A stretch of DNA of 13,028 nt from a virus (Duplodnaviria; Heunggongvirae; Uroviricota; Caudoviricetes). The notes under the pieces are model-generated. The model was not told the origin of the DNA and ran no database searches. It was given only the letters and a program-made list of their open reading frames with translations. How positions within the stretch are numbered: the stretch's first letter is position 1; each line of letters opens with the position of its first letter. The position numbers and the translations under genes were made by a program. This document shows positions 1-13,028 of the stretch, one piece after another. Location of the stretch: IMG/VR virus record IMGVR_UViG_2606217118_000007, positions 1 to 13,028 of that record, one strand, 5' to 3'.

Positions 1-606
1 ATGAATAGTCTGCTGCCACCGGGTTCAACTTCACTGGAGCGCCGACTGGCGCAGACCTGTAGCGGGATTTCTGATCTGCAGGTGCCGCTGCGTGACTTGT
101 GGAATCCGGCGACCTGTCCGGTCAGTTTCCTTCCTTATCTCGCCTGGGCGTTCTCTGTGGATCGCTGGGACGAGGGCTGGACAGAAAGCGTCAAGCGCCA
201 GGTGGTGAAGGATGCTTTTTATATTCATCAGCATAAAGGGACCACCAGTGCCGTGCGGCGGGTGGTGGAGCCGTTCGGCTTTCTGATCCGCATTATTGAG
301 TGGTGGCAGACCGGAGAAACACCGGGCACGTTTCGCCTGGATATCGGCGTGCAGGACCAGGGCATCACTGAAGATACCTATCTGGAACTTGAGCGGCTGA
401 TAAGCGATGCCAAACCATGTAGCCGCCATCTGATCGGCATGTCCATCAATCTGCAGACCAGCGGCCCGCATTGGGTGGGGGCTGCCAGCTATCTTGGCGA
501 AGAAATCACGATCTATCCGTATATCAACGAAACAATTATTTCCGGCGGCACCGCGCATGAAGGCGGGGCGGTCCATGTTATTGACACAATGAGAGTGAAT
601 CCATGA
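1..606 (+). CDS. P2-type baseplate assembly protein I (gpI-like); may start at or before the window edge
   Basis: 201-aa ORF with motifs recalled from the phage tail protein I family (LPYLAWAFSVDRWD, HKGT, RVVEPFGFL). Its stop overlaps the tail fiber start (ATGA at 603-606), the usual gene order upstream of H. Confidence 0.7.
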   Translation: MNSLLPPGSTSLERRLAQTCSGISDLQVPLRDLWNPATCPVSFLPYLAWAFSVDRWDEGWTESVKRQVVKDAFYIHQHKGTTSAVRRVVEPFGFLIRIIEWWQTGETPGTFRLDIGVQDQGITEDTYLELERLISDAKPCSRHLIGMSINLQTSGPHWVGAASYLGEEITIYPYINETIISGGTAHEGGAVHVIDTMRVNP

Positions 607-2108
607 GCACAAAATTTTATACCCTGCTGACGGATATTGGCGCGGCGAAACTTGCCAGCGCCGCCGCGCTCGGTGTGCCGCTAAAAATTACCCATATGGC
701 GGTGGGCGATGGCGGTGGAGTATTACCAACGCCGGACGCAAAGCAGACGGCACTGGTAAATGAGAAACGCCGGGCTGCGCTGAATATGCTTTATATCGAC
801 CCGCAGAACAGCAGCCAGATTATTGCCGAACAGGTGATCCCTGAAAACGAGGGCGGTTGGTGGATACGTGAAGTGGGCTTGTTTGATGAGTCCGGGGCAT
901 TGATTGCCGTGGGCAACTGCCCGGAAAGCTATAAGCCGCAACTGGCTGAAGGTAGCGGGCGCACTCAGACCGTGCGCATGGTGCTGATTACCAGCAGCAC
1001 GGACAATATCACCCTGAAAATCGACCCTGCTGTAGTGCTGGCAACCCGCAAGTATGTGGATGACAAGGCACTGGAGCTGAAGGTGTACGTGGATGATCAG
1101 ATGGCAAAACATCTTGCCGCACCGGACCCGCATTCACAGTACGCGCCAAAAGCCAGCCCGACATTTACCGGAACCCCCAAAGCGCCAACGCCAGCGGCGG
1201 GGAATAATACCACGCAGGTTGCGACCACTGCGTTTGTACAGGCGGCACTGACGGCCCTTATTAATGGTGCGCCAGCCACGCTGGACACGCTGAAAGAAAT
1301 AGCCGCAGCCATTAACAATGATCCGAATTTCAGTACCACCATTAACAATGCGCTGGCACTAAAAGCACCGTTGTCGAGTCCGGCACTCACCGGAACGCCA
1401 ACAGCCCCCACGGCGGCACAGTCGGTCAACAATACACAGATTGCCACTACGGCTTTTGTGAAATCAGCGATTGCAGCAATGGTGGGTTCTGCACCCGCGG
1501 CACTGGATACACTGAACGAACTGGCGGCGGCACTGGGGAATGATCCGAACTTTGCCACGACAATGCTTAATGCGCTGGCAGGTAAACAACCGCTGGACAA
1601 TACGCTTACCAATTTGAGTGGGAAGGATGTTGCCGGTCTTCTTGCATACCTTGGTTTGGGAGAAGGTGCTCCAGCTATTGGCGTTCCGTTCTTCTGGCCG
1701 TCCGCTGCAATGCCAAATACTGTAATCGACAGCTGGTCCAGTATGGTGTTTTTGAAGTTCAACGGGGCGAAATTTTCTGCCTCTGATTACCCTGTGCTGG
1801 CAAAAGTGTTTCCTTCGCTGGTATTACCTGAAGCCCGCGGTGATTTCATTCGTATCTGGGATGACGGGCGAGGTGCAGATGGTGGTCGCGAATTATTAAG
1901 CTGGCAGGCAGCAACATCTTTATCGCAATTTGGCGGTAATTATCCAGAAGGGTCCGGCCATGCGATTAATAGTCATGATGGAATTACAGGTAATCAGCCT
2001 GGCTTTTCAAGATTTCAGTTCACCAGTTCTGCTGTAGGGGATGGTGTGAATTTTATTGCCGTCAGACCGCGAAATATTGCATTTAACTTTCTGGTGAGGG
2101 CTAAATAA
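603..2108 (+). CDS. Tail fiber protein (gpH-like), constant N-terminal region plus currently expressed variable C-terminus
   Basis: 501-aa ORF with a P2 H-like N-terminus (MSTKFYTLLTDIGAAKLA), tandem tail-fiber repeats mid-protein, and a C-terminal region of lower GC. The invertase crossover site lies in-frame at codons for LGLGE. Confidence 0.85.
   Translation: MSTKFYTLLTDIGAAKLASAAALGVPLKITHMAVGDGGGVLPTPDAKQTALVNEKRRAALNMLYIDPQNSSQIIAEQVIPENEGGWWIREVGLFDESGALIAVGNCPESYKPQLAEGSGRTQTVRMVLITSSTDNITLKIDPAVVLATRKYVDDKALELKVYVDDQMAKHLAAPDPHSQYAPKASPTFTGTPKAPTPAAGNNTTQVATTAFVQAALTALINGAPATLDTLKEIAAAINNDPNFSTTINNALALKAPLSSPALTGTPTAPTAAQSVNNTQIATTAFVKSAIAAMVGSAPAALDTLNELAAALGNDPNFATTMLNALAGKQPLDNTLTNLSGKDVAGLLAYLGLGEGAPAIGVPFFWPSAAMPNTVIDSWSSMVFLKFNGAKFSASDYPVLAKVFPSLVLPEARGDFIRIWDDGRGADGGRELLSWQAATSLSQFGGNYPEGSGHAINSHDGITGNQPGFSRFQFTSSAVGDGVNFIAVRPRNIAFNFLVRAK
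1158..1592 (+). repeat. Tandem intragenic repeat of about 215 bp (x2) inside the tail fiber gene
   Basis: Two consecutive units of about 71 aa with the same pattern: P(T/A)(F/L)TGTP.AP...NNTQ(V/I)ATTAFV....GAPA.LDTL.E(I/L)AAA..NDPNF.TT..NALA.K.P. Confidence 0.7.
1639..1664. repeat. Left crossover site for the DNA invertase (gix/hix-like 26-bp site) inside the tail fiber gene
   Basis: ttcttgcatacc-tt-ggtttgggagaa has imperfect internal dyad symmetry. Its right half (ttggtttgggagaa) is an exact inverted copy of 3422-3435. Confidence 0.7.
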
Positions 2109-2701
2109 TGAAACCTGTTTTTGATGAAAATGGGCTGGCTACAGTGCCGGGCGATATGCGTTGTTTTTATTATGATGCTGAAACATCTGAGTATACGGGC
2201 TGGTCTGATGAATATATTAATACTGGCGTAAGTATGCCCGCCTGTTCCACTGGTATTGATCCTGGCGAAAACATTCCGGGAAGAGTGGCAGTATTTACAG
2301 GTAAGGGATGGAGCCATGAAGAAGACCACCGCAATGAGACTGTTTACTCAATCGAAAATGGCGCAGCTGTTACAGTGGATTATATCGGTGCCATCAAAGA
2401 CGGTTATGTCACGCTTTCACCGTTAACGCCATACGATAAATGGGATGGTGAGAAATGGGTGACAGATACTGAGGCACAGCATAGCGCCGCAGTAGATGCA
2501 GCAGAAGCACAGCGCCAGTCGCTGATTGATACTGCAATGGCTTCCATCAGTCTGATTCAACTGAAATTGCAGGCCGGACGTAAACTGACGCAGGCAGAAA
2601 CCACCCGACTTAACGCTGTGCTGGATTACATTGACGCGGTGACGGCAACAGATACCAGCACCGCGCCGGATGTCATCTGGCCTGAACTGCCGGAGGCGTA
2701 G
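2108..2701 (+). CDS. Tail fiber assembly protein (gpG/Tfa-like chaperone), currently expressed cassette
   Basis: 197-aa ORF starting 1 nt inside the H stop (TAATG). Its C-terminus ([24 protein letters not shown]) resembles the C-terminus of the reverse-strand paralog. Confidence 0.8.
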   Translation: MKPVFDENGLATVPGDMRCFYYDAETSEYTGWSDEYINTGVSMPACSTGIDPGENIPGRVAVFTGKGWSHEEDHRNETVYSIENGAAVTVDYIGAIKDGYVTLSPLTPYDKWDGEKWVTDTEAQHSAAVDAAEAQRQSLIDTAMASISLIQLKLQAGRKLTQAETTRLNAVLDYIDAVTATDTSTAPDVIWPELPEA

Positions 2702-3131
2702 GCCATTCAATATCTGGCGCACTGGAGGTATCAACCAGTTCCAGTGCGTTCAGATAATCCAGCCACAAATTATATTGCGCCAGTTCCTCACCATTCAGAC
2801 GACCAATAGCCGCTTTACCAGGCCATTGTTTACTGTTCATGTATTCGTTGGCATGGTTAATCAATAATTGCCTCTCTGATTCGGCCTGTTCAATAAGTTC
2901 CTCATGTGATGGTGGAGGTATTTCAACCCATGCAGGATTGCCATAACCGTCCGACCCTCTGATTTTTCCAGTCGGCGGGAATCCTAAAAACTCGGTTGCA
3001 TCCTCCTCGCTAATATCAGTGAATGTGGCGATTTCATCTTCGCTCAATTTATAATCGGAAATTGACGCGGCAGGATAGAATAATGCATTCTTTGGATCAA
3101 ATTTATACATTTCAATCACCCCGCTATCCAT
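2673..3131 (-). CDS. Alternative tail fiber assembly protein (Tfa'), silent-orientation cassette
   Basis: 152-aa ORF convergent with and overlapping tfa by 29 bp. Its C-terminus ([26 protein letters not shown]) parallels that of the forward Tfa, and it follows the alternative fiber C-terminus. Confidence 0.75.
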
Positions 3132-3434
3132 CTGTATGCGACTGGCATACTTCCAACCTGTGAAACAGAAAACCCCTGCCTCGATTTTCGCAACACATTT
3201 ACGGCCCCTTTATTTGCTCCTGTATCTGCTGCACAAACGATAACTTCGAAATCGTCATACGGAAATGGTATCGGGAATAAAATGTTAGTTTGACTTGATG
3301 TCATAGCAAATCCCCGCTGTATTATTCTCCCCGACGGGTCTCTATTCCATCCTGTCCCAGATGTCCATTCTGACATACTAGGTATCTGATTTTCCCCTGT
3401 TCCCACATTCCGTTTTGCCGCTTCTCCCAAACCA
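3116..3434 (-). CDS. Alternative tail-fiber C-terminal cassette (Hv'), promoterless and without its own start in this orientation
   Basis: The reverse-strand frame passes through the right crossover site in the same frame as H (NVGLGE versus YLGLGE), so inversion would fuse H codons 1 to about 354 to this roughly 106-aa tail. The tracked ORF 3116-3475 runs past the site into non-coding DNA. Confidence 0.65.
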
Positions 3435-3447
3435 ACGTTTATGAAAA
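3422..3447. repeat. Right crossover site for the DNA invertase (gix/hix-like)
   Basis: ttctcccaaacc-aa-cgtttatgaaaa is the inverted counterpart of 1639-1664 and lies about 55 bp upstream of the invertase start. Confidence 0.7.
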
Positions 3448-3502
3448 TGCAGAGATAACGGCTAACTGGCATCATCTCCGGTTTTTATTCAGGGGGATGA
3501 TC

Positions 3503-4069
3503 ATGCTTATTGGCTATGTACGCGTGTCAACAAATGACCAGAACACCGATTTGCAACGCAATGCACTGAACTGTGCGGGATGTGAGCGGATTTTTGAGGA
3601 TAAAATCAGTGGCACCAAGTCCGACAGACCGGGGCTGAAAAAGCTGCTCAGGACACTATCGGCAGGAGACACGCTGGTTGTCTGGAAGCTGGACAGACTG
3701 GGGCGCAGTATGCGGCATCTTGTTACGCTGATAGAAGAGCTGCGCCAGCGTGGCGTGAATTTCCGAAGCCTGACTGACAGTATTGATACCAGCACCCCAA
3801 TGGGCCGTTTCTTTTTTCATGTCATGGGTGCCCTGGCTGAAATGGAACGCGAACTGATAGTTGAACGTACCAGGGCGGGGCTGGCTGCAGCTCGTGCTAA
3901 AGGCAGAGTAGGTGGACGCCGTCCTAAGTTGACCAGCGAACAGTGGGCACAGATTGGGCGTTTACTCGAGGCCGGAGAATCAAGACAGCGTATTGCACTG
4001 ATTTTTGATGTAGGCGTTTCTACCATTTATCGAAAATTTCCGGCAAATAAGAACAATAAATCTCCCTGA
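3503..4069 (+). CDS. Serine-recombinase DNA invertase (Gin/Hin/Pin/Cin family)
   Basis: The N-terminus MLIGYVRVSTNDQ carries the catalytic Ser of the resolvase/invertase family, with a C-terminal HTH-like region (SRQRIALIFDVGVSTIYRKF). The GGGGGA ribosome-binding site is spaced for the ATG at 3503 rather than the ORF-track start at 3497. Confidence 0.85.
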   Translation: MLIGYVRVSTNDQNTDLQRNALNCAGCERIFEDKISGTKSDRPGLKKLLRTLSAGDTLVVWKLDRLGRSMRHLVTLIEELRQRGVNFRSLTDSIDTSTPMGRFFFHVMGALAEMERELIVERTRAGLAAARAKGRVGGRRPKLTSEQWAQIGRLLEAGESRQRIALIFDVGVSTIYRKFPANKNNKSP

Positions 4070-4117
4070 ATCAGCTTTATTTTGATTATCCCTGAAAGCA
4101 GACAAATACCGTCATTT

Positions 4118-4135
4118 TGTGTGAATAACGGTACA
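4118..4135 (+). promoter_or_regulatory. Putative Ogr-dependent late promoter element (TGT-N12-ACA) upstream of the sheath operon
   Basis: tgt-gtgaataacggt-aca lies about 80-95 bp upstream of the FI start codon, matching the P2 late-promoter activator dyad. This short motif could occur by chance. Confidence 0.45.
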
Positions 4136-4211
4136 ACTGCGCTTAGCTGTTTGTCAGGCACAATCACTTCAACATAGGGCGAAGCCTAATCCAATCAGGA
4201 GGTTCGCCACT

Positions 4212-5384
4212 ATGGCTCAGGATTACCACCACGGGGTGCGCGTTGTTGAAGTCAACGAAGGCACCCGATCCATTACCACGGTGAGCACCGCCATCGTGGG
4301 TATGGTCTGCACGGGCGATGATGCCGATGCAAAAATGTTTCCTCTTAATAAACCCGTGCTGATCACTGATGTGCTGACTGCCAGCGGTAAAGCGGGTGAG
4401 TCAGGCACGCTGGCTCGTTCGCTGGATGCCATCGCTGACCAGGCAAAACCCGTGACCGTTGTTGTGCGTGTGCCGCAGGGTGAAACGGAAGAAGAAACCA
4501 CGACCAATATCATCGGAGCAGTGACCGCTGAAGGTAAAAAAACAGGCATGAAAGCCCTGTTATCTGCCCAGTCACAGCTCGGCGTTAAACCGCGCATTCT
4601 CGGCGTGCCAGGTCACGACACGAAGGCGGTAGCTACTGAGTTGCTGAGCGTGGCGCAAAGCCTGCGTGGATTTGCTTACCTGTCAGCGTATGGTTGCAAG
4701 ACAGTGCAGGAAGCAATCACTTACCGTGAAAACTTCAGTCAGCGTGAAGGAATGCTGATCTGGCCCGACTTTACTGGCTGGGACACGGTGCTGAATGCCG
4801 AAGCAACGGCTTATGCCACCGCCCGTGCGCTTGGTCTGCGCGCCAAAATTGACGAGCAGACCGGATGGCACAAAAGCCTGTCCAACGTGGGCGTTAACGG
4901 TGTCACCGGAATTTCTGCTGATGTGTTCTGGGATCTGCAGGACCCGGCAACCGATGCGGGACTGCTGAACCAGAACGACGTCACCACCCTTATCCGCAAA
5001 GACGGTTTTCGCTTCTGGGGTTCCCGCTGCCTGAGTGATGACCCGCTCTTTGCCTTCGAAAACTACACCCGCACGGCGCAGGTGCTGACGGACACGATGG
5101 CAGAAGCGCACATGTGGGCGGTGGATAAACCGCTGAATCCGTCGCTGGCCCGCGACATTATCGAGGGTATCCGCGCCAAAATGCGCAGCCTGGTCAGTCA
5201 GGGCTATCTCATTGGTGGTGATTGCTGGCTGGATGAGTCGGTGAACGACAAAGACACGCTGAAAGCCGGAAAACTCACCATCGACTACGACTACACGCCA
5301 GTGCCGCCACTTGAAAACCTGATGCTGCGTCAGCGCATCACCGATCAGTACCTGGTGAATTTCTCCAGCCAGGTCAGCGCGTAA
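4212..5384 (+). CDS. Contractile tail sheath protein (gpFI-like)
   Basis: 390-aa ORF with a strong ribosome-binding site (AGGAGG) and a P2 FI-like N-terminus ([17 protein letters not shown]), in the conserved position before the tube gene. Confidence 0.85.
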
Positions 5385-5393
5385 GGGGACAAC

Positions 5394-5909
5394 ATGGCTT
5401 TACCACGCAAATTAAAACACCTGAACCTGTTTAATGACGGGAACAACTGGCAGGGGATCGTTGAGTCGCTGACGCTGCCGAAATTTACCCGCAAATATGA
5501 GAAGTATCGCGGCGGCGGAATGCCGGGTGCAGTGGATGTGGATCTGGGGCTGGATGACGGCGCACTGGATACGGAATTTTCCATTGGTGGTACTGAACTG
5601 CTGCTGTTTAAGCAGATGGGCAAAGCCACGGTGGATGGTATCCAGTTGCGCTTTACCGGCTCTATCCAGCGTGACGATACCGGGGAAGTGCAGGCCGTGG
5701 AGCTTGTGGTGCGTGGACGTCACAAAGAAGTGGATTCCGGCGAGTGGAAGACGGGCGAAAGCAACACCACCAAAGTGACCAGTACCAACAGCTACGCGAA
5801 GCTGACTATAAATGGTGAGGTGCTCTATGAAGTGGACCTTATCAACATGGTGGAAATTGTGGACGGTGTGGACCTGATGGAAGCGCACCGCAACGCCCTC
5901 GGCCTCTGA
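5394..5909 (+). CDS. Tail tube protein (gpFII-like)
   Basis: 171-aa ORF immediately after the sheath gene with ribosome-binding site AAGGGGA, the size and position typical of P2 FII. Confidence 0.8.
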   Translation: MALPRKLKHLNLFNDGNNWQGIVESLTLPKFTRKYEKYRGGGMPGAVDVDLGLDDGALDTEFSIGGTELLLFKQMGKATVDGIQLRFTGSIQRDDTGEVQAVELVVRGRHKEVDSGEWKTGESNTTKVTSTNSYAKLTINGEVLYEVDLINMVEIVDGVDLMEAHRNALGL

Positions 5910-5920
5910 TGTATCTGAAC

Positions 5921-5938
5921 GGCGCGGGATACCGCGCC
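5921..5938 (+). promoter_or_regulatory. GC-rich stem-loop in the FII-E intergenic region (possible attenuator or mRNA-stability element)
   Basis: Perfect 7-bp stem ggcgcgg/ccgcgcc with loop gata, but not followed by a T-run. Confidence 0.3.
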
Positions 5939-5963
5939 AGAACCCAATTTACAGGACAGCAAA

Positions 5964-6266
5964 ATGAGCGATAAGCAGACTGAAAAGACTATTCAACTGG
6001 ATACCCCCATCAAGCGCGGTAAAACAGAAATCACCGAAATTGTGCTGCGTAAACCGCAGTCCGGTGCGCTGCGCGGTACACGCCTGCAGGCCATTATGGA
6101 TATGGATGTGAACGCGATGATGACCGTGATCCCCCGCATCTCCAGTCCGGCACTGACTGCACAGGAAATTGCAGAGATGGACCCGGCAGATCTCACTGCC
6201 ATGTCGGTTGAGGTTGTCACTTTTTTGTTGAAGAAGTCGGTGCTTGCCGGTTTACCGACAGCCTGA
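5964..6266 (+). CDS. Tail assembly chaperone gpE (zero-frame product)
   Basis: 100-aa ORF between the tube and tape measure genes, containing the slippery heptamer near its 3' end. Confidence 0.75.
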   Translation: MSDKQTEKTIQLDTPIKRGKTEITEIVLRKPQSGALRGTRLQAIMDMDVNAMMTVIPRISSPALTAQEIAEMDPADLTAMSVEVVTFLLKKSVLAGLPTA

Positions 6267-6400
6267 CGGTTGACGATCTGGTGGCTGATATCGCCACCAT
6301 CTTTCACTGGCCGCCATCCGTTACTGACGTTATGCCGCTGACCGAAGTGCTGGAATGGCGGTATAAAGCGATTCAGAGAAGCGGGGCCAACGATGAGTGA
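5964..6400 (+). CDS. Tail assembly chaperone gpE+E' made by programmed -1 ribosomal frameshift at T_TTT_TTG (6221-6227)
   Basis: The heptamer t ttt ttg sits in the zero frame of E. The -1 frame is open from 6227 to a TGA at 6398-6400, which overlaps the start of the tape measure gene, as in P2 E/E'. Confidence 0.7.
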
Positions 6401-9400
6401 TAATAACCTGCGCCTGCAGGTCATTCTTAATGCGGTTGACAAACTCACCCGCCCATTCCGTGCTGCACAGGCCAGTTCGAAAGAGCTGGCTGGCGCAATT
6501 CAGAATACCCGAAACAGCCTCAAAGAACTGAATAAGCAGGCTGGCAGAATTGATGAATTTCGCAAGACGCGCTCGCAACTAGCCATAACAGCCAACAACC
6601 TGAACGCAGCCCGCGAAGAGGCGGCAAAACTCGCCACACAATTTGCTGCCACTAACAGGCCAACCGCCGCGCAGGCAAAGTTATTCAGTCAGGCCAAAAC
6701 ACGAGTACAGGAACTTCAGCAGACCTATAACGGCTTGTTGGGGGCGGTCCAGAGACAACGTCAGGCACTTAAAGAATCAGGGATTGATACCAGACAACTC
6801 AGTAGTGCCCAGCGAGAACTTAAGAAAAATGCCGAAGAAACTCGTCAGGCACTGGAGGGCCAGCAAAAAGCACTTAAACGTCTGGGTGAACAACAGGCAC
6901 GGATGAACGCTGCCAGAGAACAATACTCAAGACGGCTTGAAGTGCGCGATCGCATCGCAGGAGCCGGAGCCACCACCACGGCTGCAGGGCTGGCAATGGG
7001 CGCGCCAGTGATGGCGGCGGTAAAAAGCTATACCAGCATGGAAGATGCCATGAAAGGTGTGGCAAAGCAGGTCAATGGTCTGCGTGACGATAATGGCAAC
7101 CGCACTGCGCGTTTTTACGAAATGCAGGATGCCATCAAAGCTGCCAGTGAACAGCTGCCAATGGAAAACGGTGCTGTGGACTTCGCCGCACTGGTTGAAG
7201 GTGGTGCGCGCATGAATGTGGCAAACCCTGACGGCAGCTGGGAGGACCAGAAACGTGACCTGCTGGCCTTCGCCAGTACGGCAGCAAAGGCGGCAACAGC
7301 CTTTGAGCTGCCAGCGGATGAACTGTCAGAAAGTCTGGGGAAAATCGCCCAGCTCTACAAAATACCAACCCGCAATATTGAACAGCTCGGTGATGCGCTG
7401 AACTATCTGGATGATAACGCCATGTCGAAAGGGGCAGACATCATTGATGTCATGCAACGCCTGGGCGGTGTGGCTGATCGTCTGGATTATCGTAAAGCGG
7501 CGGCGCTGGGTTCCACCTTCCTGACACTGGGGGCTGCGCCGGAGGTCGCTGCCAGTGCTGCCAACGCGATGGTGCGTGAATTGTCCATTGCCACCATGCA
7601 AAGCAAGAGTTTCTTTGAAGGGATGAATCTGCTGAAACTCAATCCTGAAGTGATTGAAAAGCAGATGACGAAGGATGCGATGGGAACTATCCAGCGTGTG
7701 CTGGAGAAGGTGAACGCACTGCCGCAGGACAAGCGTCTGTCTGCCATGACCATGTTGTTTGGTAAAGAGTTTGGCGATGACGCGGCGAAACTGGCAAACA
7801 ACCTGCCGGAACTACAGCGCCAGCTAAAACTGACAGCGGGCAATGATGCGCTCGGTTCCATGCAGAAAGAATCCGACATCAACAAGGACTCACTTTCTGC
7901 TCAGTGGTTGCTGGTTAAAACCGGAGCGCAGAATACCTTCAGCAGCCTGGGCGAAACGCTGCGCCAGCCGCTGATGGATATTCTGTACACGGTGAAAAGC
8001 GTTACGGGAGCGTTGCGTCGCTGGGTGGAAGCTAACCCGGAACTGACGGGCACACTGATGAAAGTAGCCGCTATTGTGGCTGCGGTTACCGTAGGCCTAG
8101 GCACCCTGGCTGTGGCGCTGGCTGCAGTGCTGGGGCCGCTGGCAGTCATCCGTCTGGGATTCTCTGTGCTGGGCATCAAAACGTTACCTTCCGTTATGGC
8201 AGCAGTAACACGAACCAGCAGCGCGTTGTCCTGGCTGGCTGGCGCACCACTGGCACTGCTGCGACGCGGGCTTGCTTCATCGGGCAACGCCGCAGGTTTA
8301 CTTACTGCGCCGTTGTCGTCTTTGCGCCGTACGGCATCACTGACGGGAAATGTCCTGAAAACTGTAGCAGGTGCGCCGGTTGCACTATTGCGGTCTGGAT
8401 TATCCGCTTTACGTGCTGTTGCTGTGATGTTTATGAATCCTCTGGCGGTACTGCGCGGCGGGCTGGCTGCCGCAGGCACGGTGCTGCGAGTACTGGCATC
8501 TGGTCCACTGGCGATGTTGCGCGTTGCCCTGTATGCCGTATCTGGTCTGTTAGGTGCTTTGCTCAGTCCGATAGGTCTTGTGGTTACTGCACTGGCGGGT
8601 GTGGCACTGGTTGTCTGGAAATACTGGCAACCCATCACCGCATTTCTCGGTGGCGTGGTGGAAGGATTCAAAGCGGCGGCAGGTCCCATCAGTGCAGCGT
8701 TCGAACCGCTTAAGCCTGTGTTCCAGTGGATTGGTGACAAAGTGCAGGCGCTGTGGGGCTGGTTTACTGATCTGCTGACGCCCGTTAAGTCGACCTCTGC
8801 CGAACTGCAGAGCGCAGCGGCAATGGGGCGACGATTCGGGGAGGCACTGGCGGAAGGGCTGAATATGGTTATGCATCCGCTGGACTCCCTGAAATCTGGC
8901 GTTTCCTGGTTGCTGGATAAACTCGGCATTGTCAGTAAAGAGGCTGCAAAGGCGAAACTGCCGGAAAGCGTGACGCGTCAGCAACCTGCGACGGTGAATG
9001 CAGACGGTAAAGTGATGATGCCATCGGGTGGTTTTCCGTCATGGGGATATGGCTTTGCGGGGATGTATGACAGCGGCGGCTATATCCCGCGTGGGCAGTT
9101 TGGCATCGTCGGTGAAAACGGGCCGGAAATTGTTAACGGCCCGGCAAATGTGACCAGCCGGAGAAATACAGCTGCACTGGCTGCCGTTGTTGCCGGAATG
9201 ATGGGCGTTGCTGCCGCGCCAGCAGAGCTTCCACCGTTGCACCCTTTGGCACTTCCCGCGAAAGGTGGAGAAGCAATTGTGAGTCGCGCAGCCACTGTGC
9301 CGCTCGTTCAACGGATTGAGGCACCGACGCAGATCATCATTCAGACGCAGCCAGGACAAAGTGCGCAGGATATTGCGCGGGAGGTGGCACGCCAGCTTGA

Positions 9401-9470
9401 TGAACGTGAACGCAGGCTGAAGGCAAAAGCCAGGAGTAACTACAGCGATCAGGGGGGATACGACGCATGA
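6393..9470 (+). CDS. Tail tape measure protein (gpT-like)
   Basis: 1025-aa ORF with a coiled-coil-like N-terminal third, repeated hydrophobic LxxLR-type segments in the central region, and the conserved position after E/E'. Its stop overlaps the U start (ATGA). Confidence 0.85.
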   Translation: MSDNNLRLQVILNAVDKLTRPFRAAQASSKELAGAIQNTRNSLKELNKQAGRIDEFRKTRSQLAITANNLNAAREEAAKLATQFAATNRPTAAQAKLFSQAKTRVQELQQTYNGLLGAVQRQRQALKESGIDTRQLSSAQRELKKNAEETRQALEGQQKALKRLGEQQARMNAAREQYSRRLEVRDRIAGAGATTTAAGLAMGAPVMAAVKSYTSMEDAMKGVAKQVNGLRDDNGNRTARFYEMQDAIKAASEQLPMENGAVDFAALVEGGARMNVANPDGSWEDQKRDLLAFASTAAKAATAFELPADELSESLGKIAQLYKIPTRNIEQLGDALNYLDDNAMSKGADIIDVMQRLGGVADRLDYRKAAALGSTFLTLGAAPEVAASAANAMVRELSIATMQSKSFFEGMNLLKLNPEVIEKQMTKDAMGTIQRVLEKVNALPQDKRLSAMTMLFGKEFGDDAAKLANNLPELQRQLKLTAGNDALGSMQKESDINKDSLSAQWLLVKTGAQNTFSSLGETLRQPLMDILYTVKSVTGALRRWVEANPELTGTLMKVAAIVAAVTVGLGTLAVALAAVLGPLAVIRLGFSVLGIKTLPSVMAAVTRTSSALSWLAGAPLALLRRGLASSGNAAGLLTAPLSSLRRTASLTGNVLKTVAGAPVALLRSGLSALRAVAVMFMNPLAVLRGGLAAAGTVLRVLASGPLAMLRVALYAVSGLLGALLSPIGLVVTALAGVALVVWKYWQPITAFLGGVVEGFKAAAGPISAAFEPLKPVFQWIGDKVQALWGWFTDLLTPVKSTSAELQSAAAMGRRFGEALAEGLNMVMHPLDSLKSGVSWLLDKLGIVSKEAAKAKLPESVTRQQPATVNADGKVMMPSGGFPSWGYGFAGMYDSGGYIPRGQFGIVGENGPEIVNGPANVTSRRNTAALAAVVAGMMGVAAAPAELPPLHPLALPAKGGEAIVSRAATVPLVQRIEAPTQIIIQTQPGQSAQDIAREVARQLDERERRLKAKARSNYSDQGGYDA

Positions 9471-11053: not shown

Positions 11054-11087
11054 TTCTCAATATTGATATTTTGTGTATCATTACAAT
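11054..11087 (+). promoter_or_regulatory. Possible sigma70-type promoter for ogr
   Basis: The hexamers ttgata (11063-11068) and tacaat (11082-11087) are present, but the 13-bp spacing is suboptimal; the alternative pair ttctca / tatcat is also possible. Confidence 0.25.
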
Positions 11088-11117
11088 GATTCTGATAGCA
11101 AAGGTAGGGATCTGGAT

Positions 11118-11336
11118 ATGATGAATTGTCCAAAGTGTGGTCATGCGGCACACACAAGGAGCAGTTTTCAAGTAACTGAAAGCACTAAAGAGCGTTACTG
11201 CCAGTGCCAAAATATTAACTGCGGGAGTACTTTTGTTACCCATGAAACAGTGGTCCGGTTTATTGTGACACCCGCACTGATTGCTACTGCTCCTCCACAT
11301 CCATTGCCAGGTGGTCAGGGGCATATGAATTTTTGA
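11118..11336 (+). CDS. ogr: Ogr/Delta-family zinc-finger late transcription activator
   Basis: MMNCPKCGHAAHTRSS...KERYCQCQNINCGSTF has the Cys4 pattern and KERY.QCQN.NC motif of P2 Ogr. The ribosome-binding site aaggtaggg lies 8 nt upstream of the ATG at 11118, so the ORF-track start at 11073 is probably a non-translated in-frame extension. Confidence 0.8.
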   Translation: MMNCPKCGHAAHTRSSFQVTESTKERYCQCQNINCGSTFVTHETVVRFIVTPALIATAPPHPLPGGQGHMNF

Positions 11337-11343
11337 GAAAGAG

Positions 11344-11368
11344 AACCTGCTACGGCAGGTTTTTATTC
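11344..11368. terminator. Intrinsic terminator between convergent ogr and the cargo gene
   Basis: Stem aacctgc / gcaggtt with loop tacg, followed by tttttatt on the + strand. It overlaps the stop codon of the reverse gene. Confidence 0.6.
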
Positions 11369-11845
11369 ATCTGGGATCTCACCCGTTTCAAGAAAATGTA
11401 TAAAGCCAGGCTCATCTATGATGATTGTGCCTTTCATCCTGGCTGCCGATACTTTTGATGGGCCTGCATTGTAACCGCAACAGAGCATCTGAAGGCTTTG
11501 GGTTACAGAGGTTCTTACCGTTAATCCTTGTTCATTCGCCTTATCAACCAATCTTTCTTTATCTGCTTTCTTAAATCCGGTGAAACACACATCGAATGTA
11601 TTTTTTTTCGGACCAGACTGCTTGGTGAGATGTGAGTAGTTTTCGGGGAGGAATGACGCGCACTCCTGAATGGCTTGTTCTGGTGAATCGTACTGTTTAA
11701 GAATGCGGTCTTTTCGGAAGGTTTTTATTCGATCGGTGTTCTTACAAATGCCCTGTATATGATTTTCGCTATAACTGATGCTCTGTATAGAGTGAACACC
11801 GATACGACCATTTGCATTGATGTAAACAAAGTGAAGTTCTTCCAT
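11363..11845 (-). CDS. Hypothetical accessory (moron-like) protein with WYL-like N-terminal motif and BRCT-like C-terminal domain
   Basis: 160-aa ORF with ribosome-binding site aaagagg 6 nt before the ATG. The N-terminus YINANGRIGVHSIQSISY...ICKNTDRIKTFRKDRIL fits the WYL-domain hallmark (R.FR.DRI). The C-terminus VCFTGF...ERL...GL.V...V....L.CGYNAGPSK...A...G..IIDE..F fits a BRCT fold. It is oriented opposite to the phage late genes and is AT-richer than them. Confidence 0.6.
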   Translation of the reverse strand: MEELHFVYINANGRIGVHSIQSISYSENHIQGICKNTDRIKTFRKDRILKQYDSPEQAIQECASFLPENYSHLTKQSGPKKNTFDVCFTGFKKADKERLVDKANEQGLTVRTSVTQSLQMLCCGYNAGPSKVSAARMKGTIIIDEPGFIHFLETGEIPDE

Positions 11846-11968: not shown

Positions 11969-12331
11969 TGGTGGAGCTGGCGGGAGTTGAACCCGCGTCC
12001 GAAATTCCTACATCCTCGGTACTACATGCTTAGTCAGTCTTTACATTCGCTTGCCAGCTGCGGACGGACACGCCACTAACAAACTAGCCTGATTAAGTTT
12101 TAACGCTTCAACCCCAGGCAGGGCTTCCACGCGATCTCTTTTGGGTTTGACCTCTCTTGATCCCCGTCCTAAGAGCGGAGGCTAGGGAGAGAGGGCTCTA
12201 AGCAGGTTATTAAGCTGCTAAAGCGTAGTTTTCGTCGTTTGCGACTATTTTTTGCGGCTTTTTACGAGGCCAACCGCCCCTCGGCATGCACCTTGGGTTT
12301 CGCAAATCCCGTCGAATCCAGAATCAGCCCC
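11969..12331 (-). ncRNA. ssrA: tmRNA (transfer-messenger RNA, SsrA), 363 nt
   Basis: The reverse complement begins GGGGCTGATTCTGGATTCGACGGG, includes the tag reading-frame region (GCAAACGACGAAAACTACGCTTTAGCAGCTTAA), and ends GGTTCAACTCCCGCCAGCTCCACCA. This matches my memory of E. coli ssrA and its position downstream of smpB. Confidence 0.9.
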
Positions 12332-12545: not shown

Positions 12546-13028
12546 TTAACGGTGGGCGTTTTTCATGATACGCGCTTTATCCACCTGCCATTCGCGTTCT
12601 TTGATATCTGAACGTTTATCATGCTGTTTCTTACCTTTGGCGACGCCGATTTTCACTTTGCACCAGGCATTTTTCCAGTACAGGGAGAGCGCCACTACGG
12701 TATAGCCTTCTCGATTGACGCGACCGTACAATGAGTCCAGTTCGCGCTGGTTGAGAAGTAACTTGCGGGTACGGGTAGGATCGCACACCACATGCGTGGA
12801 GGCCACAGCCATTGGCGTGATGTTAGCGCCAAACAGAAATGCCTCTCCGTCACGCAGAAGGACGTAGCTGTCGCTGATATTGGCTTTTCCTGCACGCAGG
12901 GATTTAACCTCCCAGCCTTGCAGGGCAAGTCCCGCCTCGAACTCTTCTTCGATAAAGTATTCGTGCCGGGCGCGCTTGTTAAGCGCGATGGTCGCTGAAC
13001 CAGGTTTATGTGCTTTTTTCTTCGTCAT
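12546..13028 (-). CDS. smpB: SsrA-binding protein SmpB
   Basis: Complete 160-aa ORF ([30 protein letters not shown]...) matching enterobacterial SmpB as I recall it. Its start codon is at the last bases of the window, upstream of and co-oriented with ssrA. Confidence 0.9.

Follow-up and report, generated by a model that had tools for sequence, protein, structure and literature searches.

Results

Organization of the locus

The window, by which we mean the whole 13,028-nt stretch of DNA that was analysed, derives from a P2-like prophage located at ssrA of E. coli. The P2-type tail module is complete and intact (I, H, tfa, FI, FII, E, T, U, D and ogr), and morphogenesis genes are seen upstream of it in identical contigs. 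Positions 1-6108 of the window are 100% identical to sequence in GCA_964038245.1 and GCA_036606155.1. Within the tail module, the tail fibre gene H and the region that follows it contain two crossover sites in inverted orientation, two pairs of fibre tip and chaperone genes on opposite strands, and a serine DNA invertase gene (Table 1).

Table 1 Coordinates of the features of the tail fibre locus within the window
Feature	Position	Strand	Remarks
H, constant N-terminal part	603..1650	+	About 349-350 residues; ORF 603-2108; common to both orientations
Left 26-bp crossover site, pixL-like	1639..1664	+	TTCTTGCATACC TT GGTTTGGGAGAA; central dinucleotide 1651-1652
Invertible segment	1652..3434	.	1783 bp between central dinucleotides
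Tip A, H variable C-terminus now expressed	1653..2108	+	About 150 aa, tail-collar-fibre type
tfa (A), chaperone for tip A	2108..2701	+	197 aa; PF02413 Caudo_TAP 3.5e-27; phrog_105 8.6e-85
tfa' (B), silent chaperone for tip B	2673..3110	-	145 aa; PF02413 4.9e-31; phrog_188 6e-53
Tip B, silent alternative H C-terminus	3116..3433	-	About 105 aa, gp53-like; PF21882 Gp53-like_C 1.5e-08
Right 26-bp crossover site, pixR-like	3422..3447	-	TTTTCATAAACG TT GGTTTGGGAGAA; central dinucleotide 3434-3435
Serine DNA invertase, Pin family	3503..4069	+	188 aa; longest ORF from 3497
Putative recombinational (Fis) enhancer	3521..3592	.	Within the 5' end of the invertase gene; by homology

Two exact copies of the 14-mer TTGGTTTGGGAGAA are present in the 13-kb window, one at 1651-1664 (+) and the other at 3422-3435 (-), and a search of the window that allowed up to two mismatches returned no further copies. 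Two or more matches were found in 0 of 200 dinucleotide-preserving shuffles (mean 0.09), and the inverted 14-bp core greatly exceeds what chance would give. In a repeat search the inverted repeat extended to 18 nt at 94% identity (1648-1665 and 3421-3438, with 1755 nt between the arms). Both sites are imperfect palindromes with the same central dinucleotide (TT/AA) and identical inner half-sites. The left site lies within the 501-aa H ORF and the right site 56-62 nt 5' of the invertase start (the range reflecting the start of the longest ORF), where it runs 12 bp into non-coding DNA that is identical in sequence to that of e14. The right site is also identical at 26/26 positions to a site of Salmonella phage MET_P1_103_31. 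A third site, as in the shufflon of one EPEC P2-like prophage, was sought with the 14-mer (two mismatches) and with ACCNNGGTTT-type scans; these gave the two sites and otherwise chance-level matches. Given the absence of a third site, we consider this to be a two-state switch.

The gene beside the right site encodes an intact Pin-family invertase with the PF00239 Resolvase (2.3e-53) and PF02796 HTH_7 (5.8e-16) domains, and it matches the DNA invertase family phrog_125 (1e-100). The protein is 87% identical to PinE, 79% to Cin and 75% to Gin. It has the motifs YVRVSTNDQ, which includes the catalytic serine (Ser9), and DRLGRS, and the basic helix-B residues PGLKKLLR are conserved. The residues altered in Fis-independent mutants of related invertases, in the FFFHVMGALAEMERE region, are wild-type. 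The original prediction of two inverted 26-bp sites with a perfect 14-bp core was thus upheld by the 14-mer scan and the shuffles, and the ORF coordinates agree with the predicted placement of one site in H and the other just 5' of a serine invertase gene.

The putative enhancer is homologous to the stretch annotated in the P1 record as the enhancer of Cin-mediated C-segment inversion (cin nt 19-90), with 55/72 identical positions to P1 and 63/72 to pinE. The same stretch also codes for the catalytic N-terminus, and because coding constraint confounds the comparison, its conservation is not independent evidence for an enhancer. The distance from its start to the centre of the right site, about 86 bp, is similar to that in the hin arrangement (about 100 bp; PMC3798978). 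A consensus scan of positions 1500-4300 for promoters and terminators gave matches at or below the shuffle expectation, and no sigma-70-like promoter was found upstream of the invertase. A terminator-like hairpin at 3464-3483 in the same scanned region was weak and not above chance.

Two fibre tips and their chaperones

A PF12571 Phage_tail_fib N-terminal domain is present in the constant part of H (E=2.9e-65). The matches of tip A are to the C-terminal ends of phrog_3100 (3e-50) and of phrog_523, a tail collar fiber protein (1e-43). Tip B, which lacks its own start as the segment now lies, matches the tail fibre family phrog_1396 (3e-17). The tfa and tfa' genes converge with a 29-nt overlap. 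The start of tfa' is an ATG at 3110, with the longest ORF reaching 3131, and its product is annotated as the 145-aa WP_032252818.1 in the E. coli genomes 22AR0750, E7 and 13P477T. The two chaperones are 33% identical to each other, across the C-terminal 87 aa only, and sequence comparison of tip A with tip B gave no significant similarity. The tips show no sequence relationship and come from separate fibre-tip families, which makes a difference in host range or receptor plausible, and homology with known switches suggests that the two orientations would differ in host range. In searches against solved structures each tip had a weak match only (tip A to the short tail fibre 9cuy, E=0.04; tip B to gp53 4mtm, E=0.12), and no conclusion about receptor type is drawn from them.

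Across the left site the present reading frame is YLGLGE-GAPA.... Inversion of the segment in silico produces a 455-aa H protein that stays in frame through the site, followed by tfa', which then begins 5 nt past the H(B) stop codon. Both fibres (501 and 455 aa) are open and have ...LLAYLGLGE in common. The gene content predicted for the segment of about 1.8 kb, with a tip and tfa on one strand and an alternative tip and tfa' on the other, is therefore correct, as is the claim that the frame is kept in both orientations. Both cassettes proved to be intact.

Both orientations in public genomes

The same prophage is present in E. coli 22AR0750, at 100% identity over window positions 1-1665 and 99.975% over 3421-7435. 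Positions 1648-3435 are inverted at 99.94% identity, and the constant part of H, itself 100% identical, is joined there to the other tip. The natural breakpoints (left 1648-1665, right 3421-3435) coincide with the repeats. The homologous segment is also inverted between the related prophages of E7 and E5, which occupy the same chromosomal place, and between 13P477T-1 and 13P477T-2, two records of one assembly. The breakpoints are the same in all three independent genome pairs, which are complete long-read assemblies.

A protein cluster look-up found 14 public contigs that encode the exact H(B) protein (455 aa) and 35 that encode the exact H(A) protein. Among 5426 complete E. coli genomes, 43 have the junction of the H constant part with tip A and 7 the junction with tip B. 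An 18-mer site scan of species-representative genomes recovered a short-read contig of a related element (L066, 1860 bp) with H-constant sequence at both segment ends, and a metagenome scaffold ends exactly at 3435, the last repeat base. Both point to mixed orientations among the reads. The same scan gave chance matches in unrelated phyla together with true matches in Escherichia/Shigella, and candidate single-site matches in other Enterobacterales. Many partial H proteins of 345-348 aa, encoded on contigs that end just before the left site, suggested assembly forks; several prophages with a common constant part could equally account for them, so they were not used.

The natural evidence for flipping is strong. 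The original prediction had called for both orientations to be detectable, and comparative data supplied them in 22AR0750, where the inverted segment lies between flanks of 99.98-100% identity. The further claim that inversion would swap the receptor-binding tip together with its chaperone gains support from the in-silico inversion and from the occurrence of the exact H(B) protein on public contigs.

Discussion

We consider it very probable that this locus, in a P2-like prophage of E. coli, is a Pin/Gin/Cin-type inversion switch that swaps the fibre tip and its chaperone. In this scenario, invertase dimers would bind both 26-bp sites and cleave at the identical central TT/AA dinucleotide, and strand exchange by subunit rotation would flip the 1783-bp segment. 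With the segment as it now lies, the late operon would make the 501-aa H(1-350)::tip A fusion and Tfa; after inversion the same constant part would be in frame with the gp53-like tip B (455 aa), followed by Tfa'. Because inversion swaps the fused tip and chaperone, progeny phage could carry either of two unrelated receptor-binding tips, and the switch may serve as a host-range bet-hedging device. Catalysis by the adjacent invertase, and a dependence on Fis, the enhancer and supercoiling, are inferred by homology.

The switch is an ordinary one. Its class has been known since Mu G and P1 C, and there is no mechanistic novelty here; the original comparison with Mu G, P1 C and the e14 P segment holds for the sites, the invertase and the layout alike. 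We assign it to this textbook class because tail-fibre inversion has already been demonstrated experimentally in P2-like prophages, namely those of E. coli E2348/69, where inversion of the tail-fibre segment was seen by sequencing and PCR (PMC4272514).

A possible, though unlikely, variant is that inversion is mainly driven in trans by resident Pin-family invertases (e14 PinE, Qin PinQ, Rac PinR, or those of other P2-like prophages), and that the adjacent invertase is dispensable. The one assembly of 13P477T contains both orientations even though its adjacent invertase is broken by an 8-bp deletion and a stop codon. Inversion can thus occur without a functional adjacent gene, and relatives acting in trans may be responsible for the flipping there. 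In addition, the right site is identical to that of e14, and Qin PinQ is reported to invert the e14 P segment in trans (PMC12529663). However, the adjacent invertase is intact and conserved in the prophage studied here, and the two 13P477T records may represent a redundant assembly or an older event. Inversion in trans would also amount to a variant form of this mechanism, not to a separate mechanism.

Expression of H in the lysogen is not expected, given that H of P2 is a late-operon gene. This bears on an improbable reading in which the lysogen, and not the phage, benefits from the switch: a fibre or fibre fragment made from one orientation, possibly set in trans by resident Pin-family invertases, would mask a surface receptor and exclude unrelated superinfecting phages. 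The precedent is StfE2, the product of the inverted e14 P segment, for which receptor masking against superinfecting phages has been reported, and PinQ-driven inversion of e14 blocks T2 adsorption (PMC12529663). The identity between tip A and e14 StfE is 41%, and that between Tfa(A) and TfaE 64.5%. However, e14 is a defective remnant, whereas the P2-type tail module here is complete. With the tail module intact, morphogenesis genes present in identical contigs and H in the late operon, the canonical phage function suffices.

It is very improbable that the switch is a fossil, i.e., that the segment no longer flips in the present lysogen, for instance through lack of invertase expression or a weak enhancer, and that the orientations in the databases are old fixed states. 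A locked switch would fit with an invertase gene that lacks a detectable sigma-70-like promoter upstream, and with the predominance of one orientation in most assemblies (junctions 43 vs 7). On the other hand, prophages that differ by the flip are 99.9-100% identical over the roughly 7.4 kb compared, and this identity indicates that the flip was recent. The invertase, of which the 22AR0750 copy is identical, and both sites are intact and the same in the two states. The related element assembled with H-constant sequence at both segment ends implies that both states existed within one culture, and close relatives are known to flip in culture (PMC4272514).

RecA recombination is inefficient at 14-18 bp of homology. 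That the repeats reflect nothing but conservation of the LGLGE peptide, which the 14-bp core encodes in both cassettes and which has the relatives LGLRE and LGLQE at the P1 and Mu sites, with RecA recombination or assembly error creating the orientation differences, is exceedingly improbable, given repeats far below the efficient length, a right site whose 12 non-coding bp are also identical to those of e14, the same breakpoints in three independent pairs of complete long-read assemblies, and a dedicated invertase adjoining the segment.

The relevance of an inversion switch of this kind is mainly to annotation and to practical work with phages. RefSeq wrongly labels the silent cassette a free-standing gp53-like domain-containing protein or an incomplete phage tail protein, and assemblies break or duplicate at the switch locus. 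Induction of such a lysogen would yield P2-like phage with two kinds of tail fibre in one population, a point to consider in host-range assays, in phage typing, and in the engineering of tailocins or phages.

Comparison with known inversion systems

The resemblance is close to the e14 P segment and PinE of K-12, as seen in the 87% identity of the invertases, the 26/26 match of the right sites, and the homologous region between site and invertase (81% over window positions 3421-3964). The left site of e14 (CTCTCGAAAACC TT GGTTTGGGAGAA) has the same core and inner half-site as the left site here. The two loci share the tip+tfa / tfa'+tip' layout, including the 29-nt convergent overlap of the chaperone genes, and are similar in segment size (1783 bp vs 1797 bp in e14; PMC12529663). 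The likeness extends to tip A and StfE and to Tfa(A) and TfaE, at the identities given above. In contrast, e14 is a lambdoid, defective remnant, and the element studied here, which lies at ssrA, appears to be a complete prophage of a P2-like myovirus, with a constant fibre part of the P2 H type (PF12571) and a gp53-like tip B that has no counterpart in e14.

Mu G/Gin and P1 C/Cin likewise combine a constant N-terminus with two C-termini that each have their own chaperone. In both, the invertase lies outside the segment, and the annotated records place an enhancer in the 5' coding region of the invertase, where the one described here is putative. Mu gix (TTATCCAAAACC TC GGTTTACAGGAA) and P1 cix (..ACC TT GGTTTAAGAGAA) resemble the present sites, cix being close to the left one; the identity of the invertase is 79% to Cin and 75% to Gin. 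However, the segment, at 1.8 kb, is shorter than those of Mu (3.0 kb) and P1 (4.2 kb). Neither the tips nor the chaperones have detectable similarity to S/U of Mu or P1, and the fibre backbone is different.

The P2-like loci of E2348/69 match in phage type and in the position of the locus between G and FI (PMC4272514). There, a two-variant switch was found with both genotypes together in clonal cultures (Goldberg et al. 2014, PMC4272514), although one EPEC locus has three repeats and forms a four-state shufflon, compared with the two sites here. More generally, a DNA invertase is often present at the Z/fun hotspot of P2, with inversion of neighbouring genes (bioRxiv 10.1101/2024.10.15.618418).

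Hin/hix of Salmonella is alike in invertase subfamily and in its 26-bp sites, and it operates by subunit rotation with an enhancer, bound by Fis, that lies about 100 bp away from one of the sites (PMC3798978). Unlike the present system, Hin flips a promoter and lies inside its segment; the switch described here changes a coding fusion, and its invertase is encoded outside the segment.

Prophage setting

The window carries the tail half of a P2-like prophage, with the expected Pfam families in all of the genes named (gpI, H, tfa, FI, FII, E, T, U, D and ogr). Because ssrA and smpB lie directly beside the prophage end, we place the prophage in an Escherichia chromosome, integrated at the 3' end of ssrA. 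Window 1-6108 has 100% identical counterparts among the contigs of two E. coli assemblies in public data. The dyad, ~85 nt before FI begins, has the form of an Ogr-dependent P2 late-promoter element. The invertase module would thus be inserted between the H-G operon and an intact PF-type promoter.

The cargo ORF sits in a P2 cargo hotspot, with ogr on one side and the ssrA attachment side on the other, and has no Pfam family. It strongly matches phrog_2561 (labelled 'DNA ligase', E=2e-77). Its BRCT-like similarity to LigA, a DEDDh exonuclease and the PADLOC candidate PDC-S48, in each case to the C-terminus, is weak. A stretch inside the tape-measure gene (6505-6935) has no megablast match in the E. 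coli 13P477T prophage, which is elsewhere 96-99.7% identical, and is a local mosaic patch.

Features of the prophage tail region and its invertible segment
Feature	Position	Strand	Description
gpI	1-606		
H	603-2108	+	tail fibre
Left site	1639-1664		26 bp, TTCTTGCATACC-TT-GGTTTGGGAGAA
Tip A			last ~150 codons of current H; C-terminal ends of tail-fibre PHROGs
tfa	2108-2701	+	197 aa; Caudo_TAP match
tfa'	ATG at 3110	-	145 aa; Caudo_TAP match
Tip B		-	promoterless ~105-aa fibre tip; gp53-like family
Right site	3422-3447		26 bp, read on - strand TTTTCATAAACG-TT-GGTTTGGGAGAA
Terminator-like hairpin	3464-3483		weak, then TTTTATT
Putative enhancer	3521-3592		
Dyad	4118-4135		TGT-N12-ACA
FI	4212-5384		sheath
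FII, E	between FI and T		FII, tube
T	6393-9470		tape measure
U, D	between T and ogr		
ogr	11073-11336		
Cargo ORF	11363-11845	-	160 aa
ssrA	11969-12331	-	tmRNA gene; tag peptide ANDENYALAA
smpB	12546-13028	-	

Crossover sites and exchange of the fibre tip

The inverted repeat on which the original prediction rested is present: the 14-mer TTGGTTTGGGAGAA occurs once per strand, at 1651-1664 and 3422-3435, and two matches were reached in 0/200 shuffles. No further copies with up to two mismatches were found in the window. At 94% identity, the repeat is 18 nt long. The two 26-bp sites share the central dinucleotide and the inner half-sites, whereas their outer half-sites differ. No third crossover site was found in the window, and thus the device is two-state.

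Four coding pieces lie between the sites (tip A, tfa, tfa' and tip B). Tips A and B are unrelated, and Tfa and Tfa' are only 33% identical, within the C-terminal 87 aa. Given that there is no terminator between the cassettes, late transcription must cross the silent one in the antisense direction. The convergent tfa and tfa' overlap by 29 nt (2673-2701), and an identical overlap is annotated in e14 (tfaP/tfaE), Salmonella phage MET_P1_103_31 and E. coli E7, E5 and 13P477T.

When 1652-3434 was reversed in silico, with cuts at the central dinucleotides, H residues 1-350 were fused in frame with tip B into a 455-aa protein, H(B), with tfa' beginning 5 nt past its stop codon. This agrees with the predicted in-frame swap of the H C-terminus, and neither cassette carries the frame-disrupting mutations that were to be checked for (no frameshift or stop in either). 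Exact H(B) is found on 14 public contigs, and the exact 501-aa fibre of the window's orientation, H(A), on 35. In the window's orientation, silent tip B forms a 119-aa ORF (3116-3475, - strand) by using a chance ATG that lies past the right site. RefSeq calls its equivalent a free-standing 'gp53-like domain-containing protein' and, where the segment lies the other way round, lists tip A as an 'incomplete phage tail protein'; the two labels are annotation artefacts caused by the switch.

Both orientations in public genomes

Public assemblies show both orientations, which was the check proposed for the original prediction. The complete genome of E. coli 22AR0750 has the same prophage, matching window 1-1665 (100%) and 3421-7435 (99.975%) on one strand and 1648-3435 (99.94%) on the opposite strand, so that the inversion breakpoints are the repeats. 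Its annotation has the 455-aa fibre, with tip A as an 'incomplete' fragment beside the invertase. The same inversion separates poultry isolates E7 and E5; at a shared chromosomal position, both carry a related prophage that is ~90% identical. Of 5426 complete E. coli genomes, 43 have the H constant region joined to tip A and seven have it joined to tip B.

A metagenome scaffold ends at window 3435, the final repeat base, and a short-read contig of Escherichia sp. MOD1-EC7003 (NZ_PTRE01000296.1, 1860 bp), consists of a related invertible segment (1-1860) that carries one ~56-nt H-constant sequence at both of its ends, in inverted orientation. These two assembly artefacts point to mixed orientations within sequenced cultures, and the contig is a read-level signature of both orientations in one culture.

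Two records within the single 13P477T assembly also differ by this inversion. The assembly holds four redundant P2-like prophage copies (the chromosome start and three 'plasmids'), and a 1848-bp tail-fibre segment is inverted between the two compared. In the adjacent invertase (p13P477T-2 8106-8676), 8 bp are deleted and AGA>TGA creates a stop; the annotation marks the gene as frameshifted in all four copies. This suggests either that another invertase acted in trans or that a mixed population led to redundant assembly.

Invertase and putative enhancer

The predicted serine invertase beside the right site is intact: it has a Resolvase and an HTH_7 domain and conserves both the catalytic-serine motif and the basic residues of helix B. 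Its identity is 87% with e14 PinE, 79% with P1 Cin and 75% with Mu Gin. A start at 3503 (188 aa) follows from homologues and from how RefSeq annotates the identical gene. The enhancer annotated for P1 (cin nt 19-90) has its homologous stretch at window 3521-3592, with 55/72 identities to P1 and 63/72 to pinE. Because this stretch also encodes the conserved invertase N-terminus, we regard it as a putative recombinational enhancer. It starts ~86 bp from the right site, a spacing that resembles the ~100 bp of the hin system (PMC3798978). The hairpin between the right site and the invertase start might stop late-operon read-through ahead of the invertase; the regional hit count is not above shuffle expectation.

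Proposed mechanism and comparison with known systems

The original observation is confirmed, and its reading as an invertible tail-fibre switch is supported by the two sites, the genes, the preserved frame and natural inversion at the sites in 22AR0750, E7/E5 and 13P477T. Canonical Pin-type inversion is the best explanation. In this scenario, dimers of the adjacent invertase would bind both sites, synapsis would occur at a Fis-bound enhancer, and cleavage at the central dinucleotide followed by rotation would flip the segment. The late operon would then express either fibre tip together with the chaperone that belongs to it, and induced phage would be a mixture with two adsorption specificities. 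From homology we infer the host-range effect, catalysis by the adjacent enzyme and dependence on Fis and the enhancer. Inversion of this kind is an established mechanism in the Hin, Gin, Cin and Pin systems (PMC3798978).

It is plausible that other resident Pin-family invertases contribute in trans, given that 13P477T has both orientations despite its damaged adjacent gene, and the e14 segment is reportedly flipped by PinQ acting in trans (PMC12529663). A lysogen-level defence role, as suggested for the inversion product StfE2 (PMC12529663), has low probability here: tip A and Tfa(A) are homologous to StfE and TfaE (41% and 64.5% identical), but the fibre here is part of a tail module that is expressed late and seems complete. 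A locked fossil switch is unlikely, since every part of the switch is intact and the prophages that differ in state are otherwise 99.9-100% identical. Coding conservation with RecA recombination does not explain the right site, which runs on into non-coding DNA identical there to that of e14.

The cassette pair is uncharacterised, in a textbook system already documented in this phage group, and the finding is chiefly of use in annotation and in practical work with phages. Flipping has been demonstrated, by sequencing and PCR, in the P2-like prophages that E. coli E2348/69 carries (PMC4272514), and a survey of P2-like hotspots reported invertases at this locus with adjacent tail-fibre genes inverted (bioRxiv 10.1101/2024.10.15.618418). 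The right site is identical to that of the e14 P segment (26/26), and the left site has the core and inner half-site in common with the e14 left site. The architecture of the sites recurs in P1 cix (…ACC TT GGTTTAAGAGAA) and in Mu gix (…ACC TC GGTTTACAGGAA).
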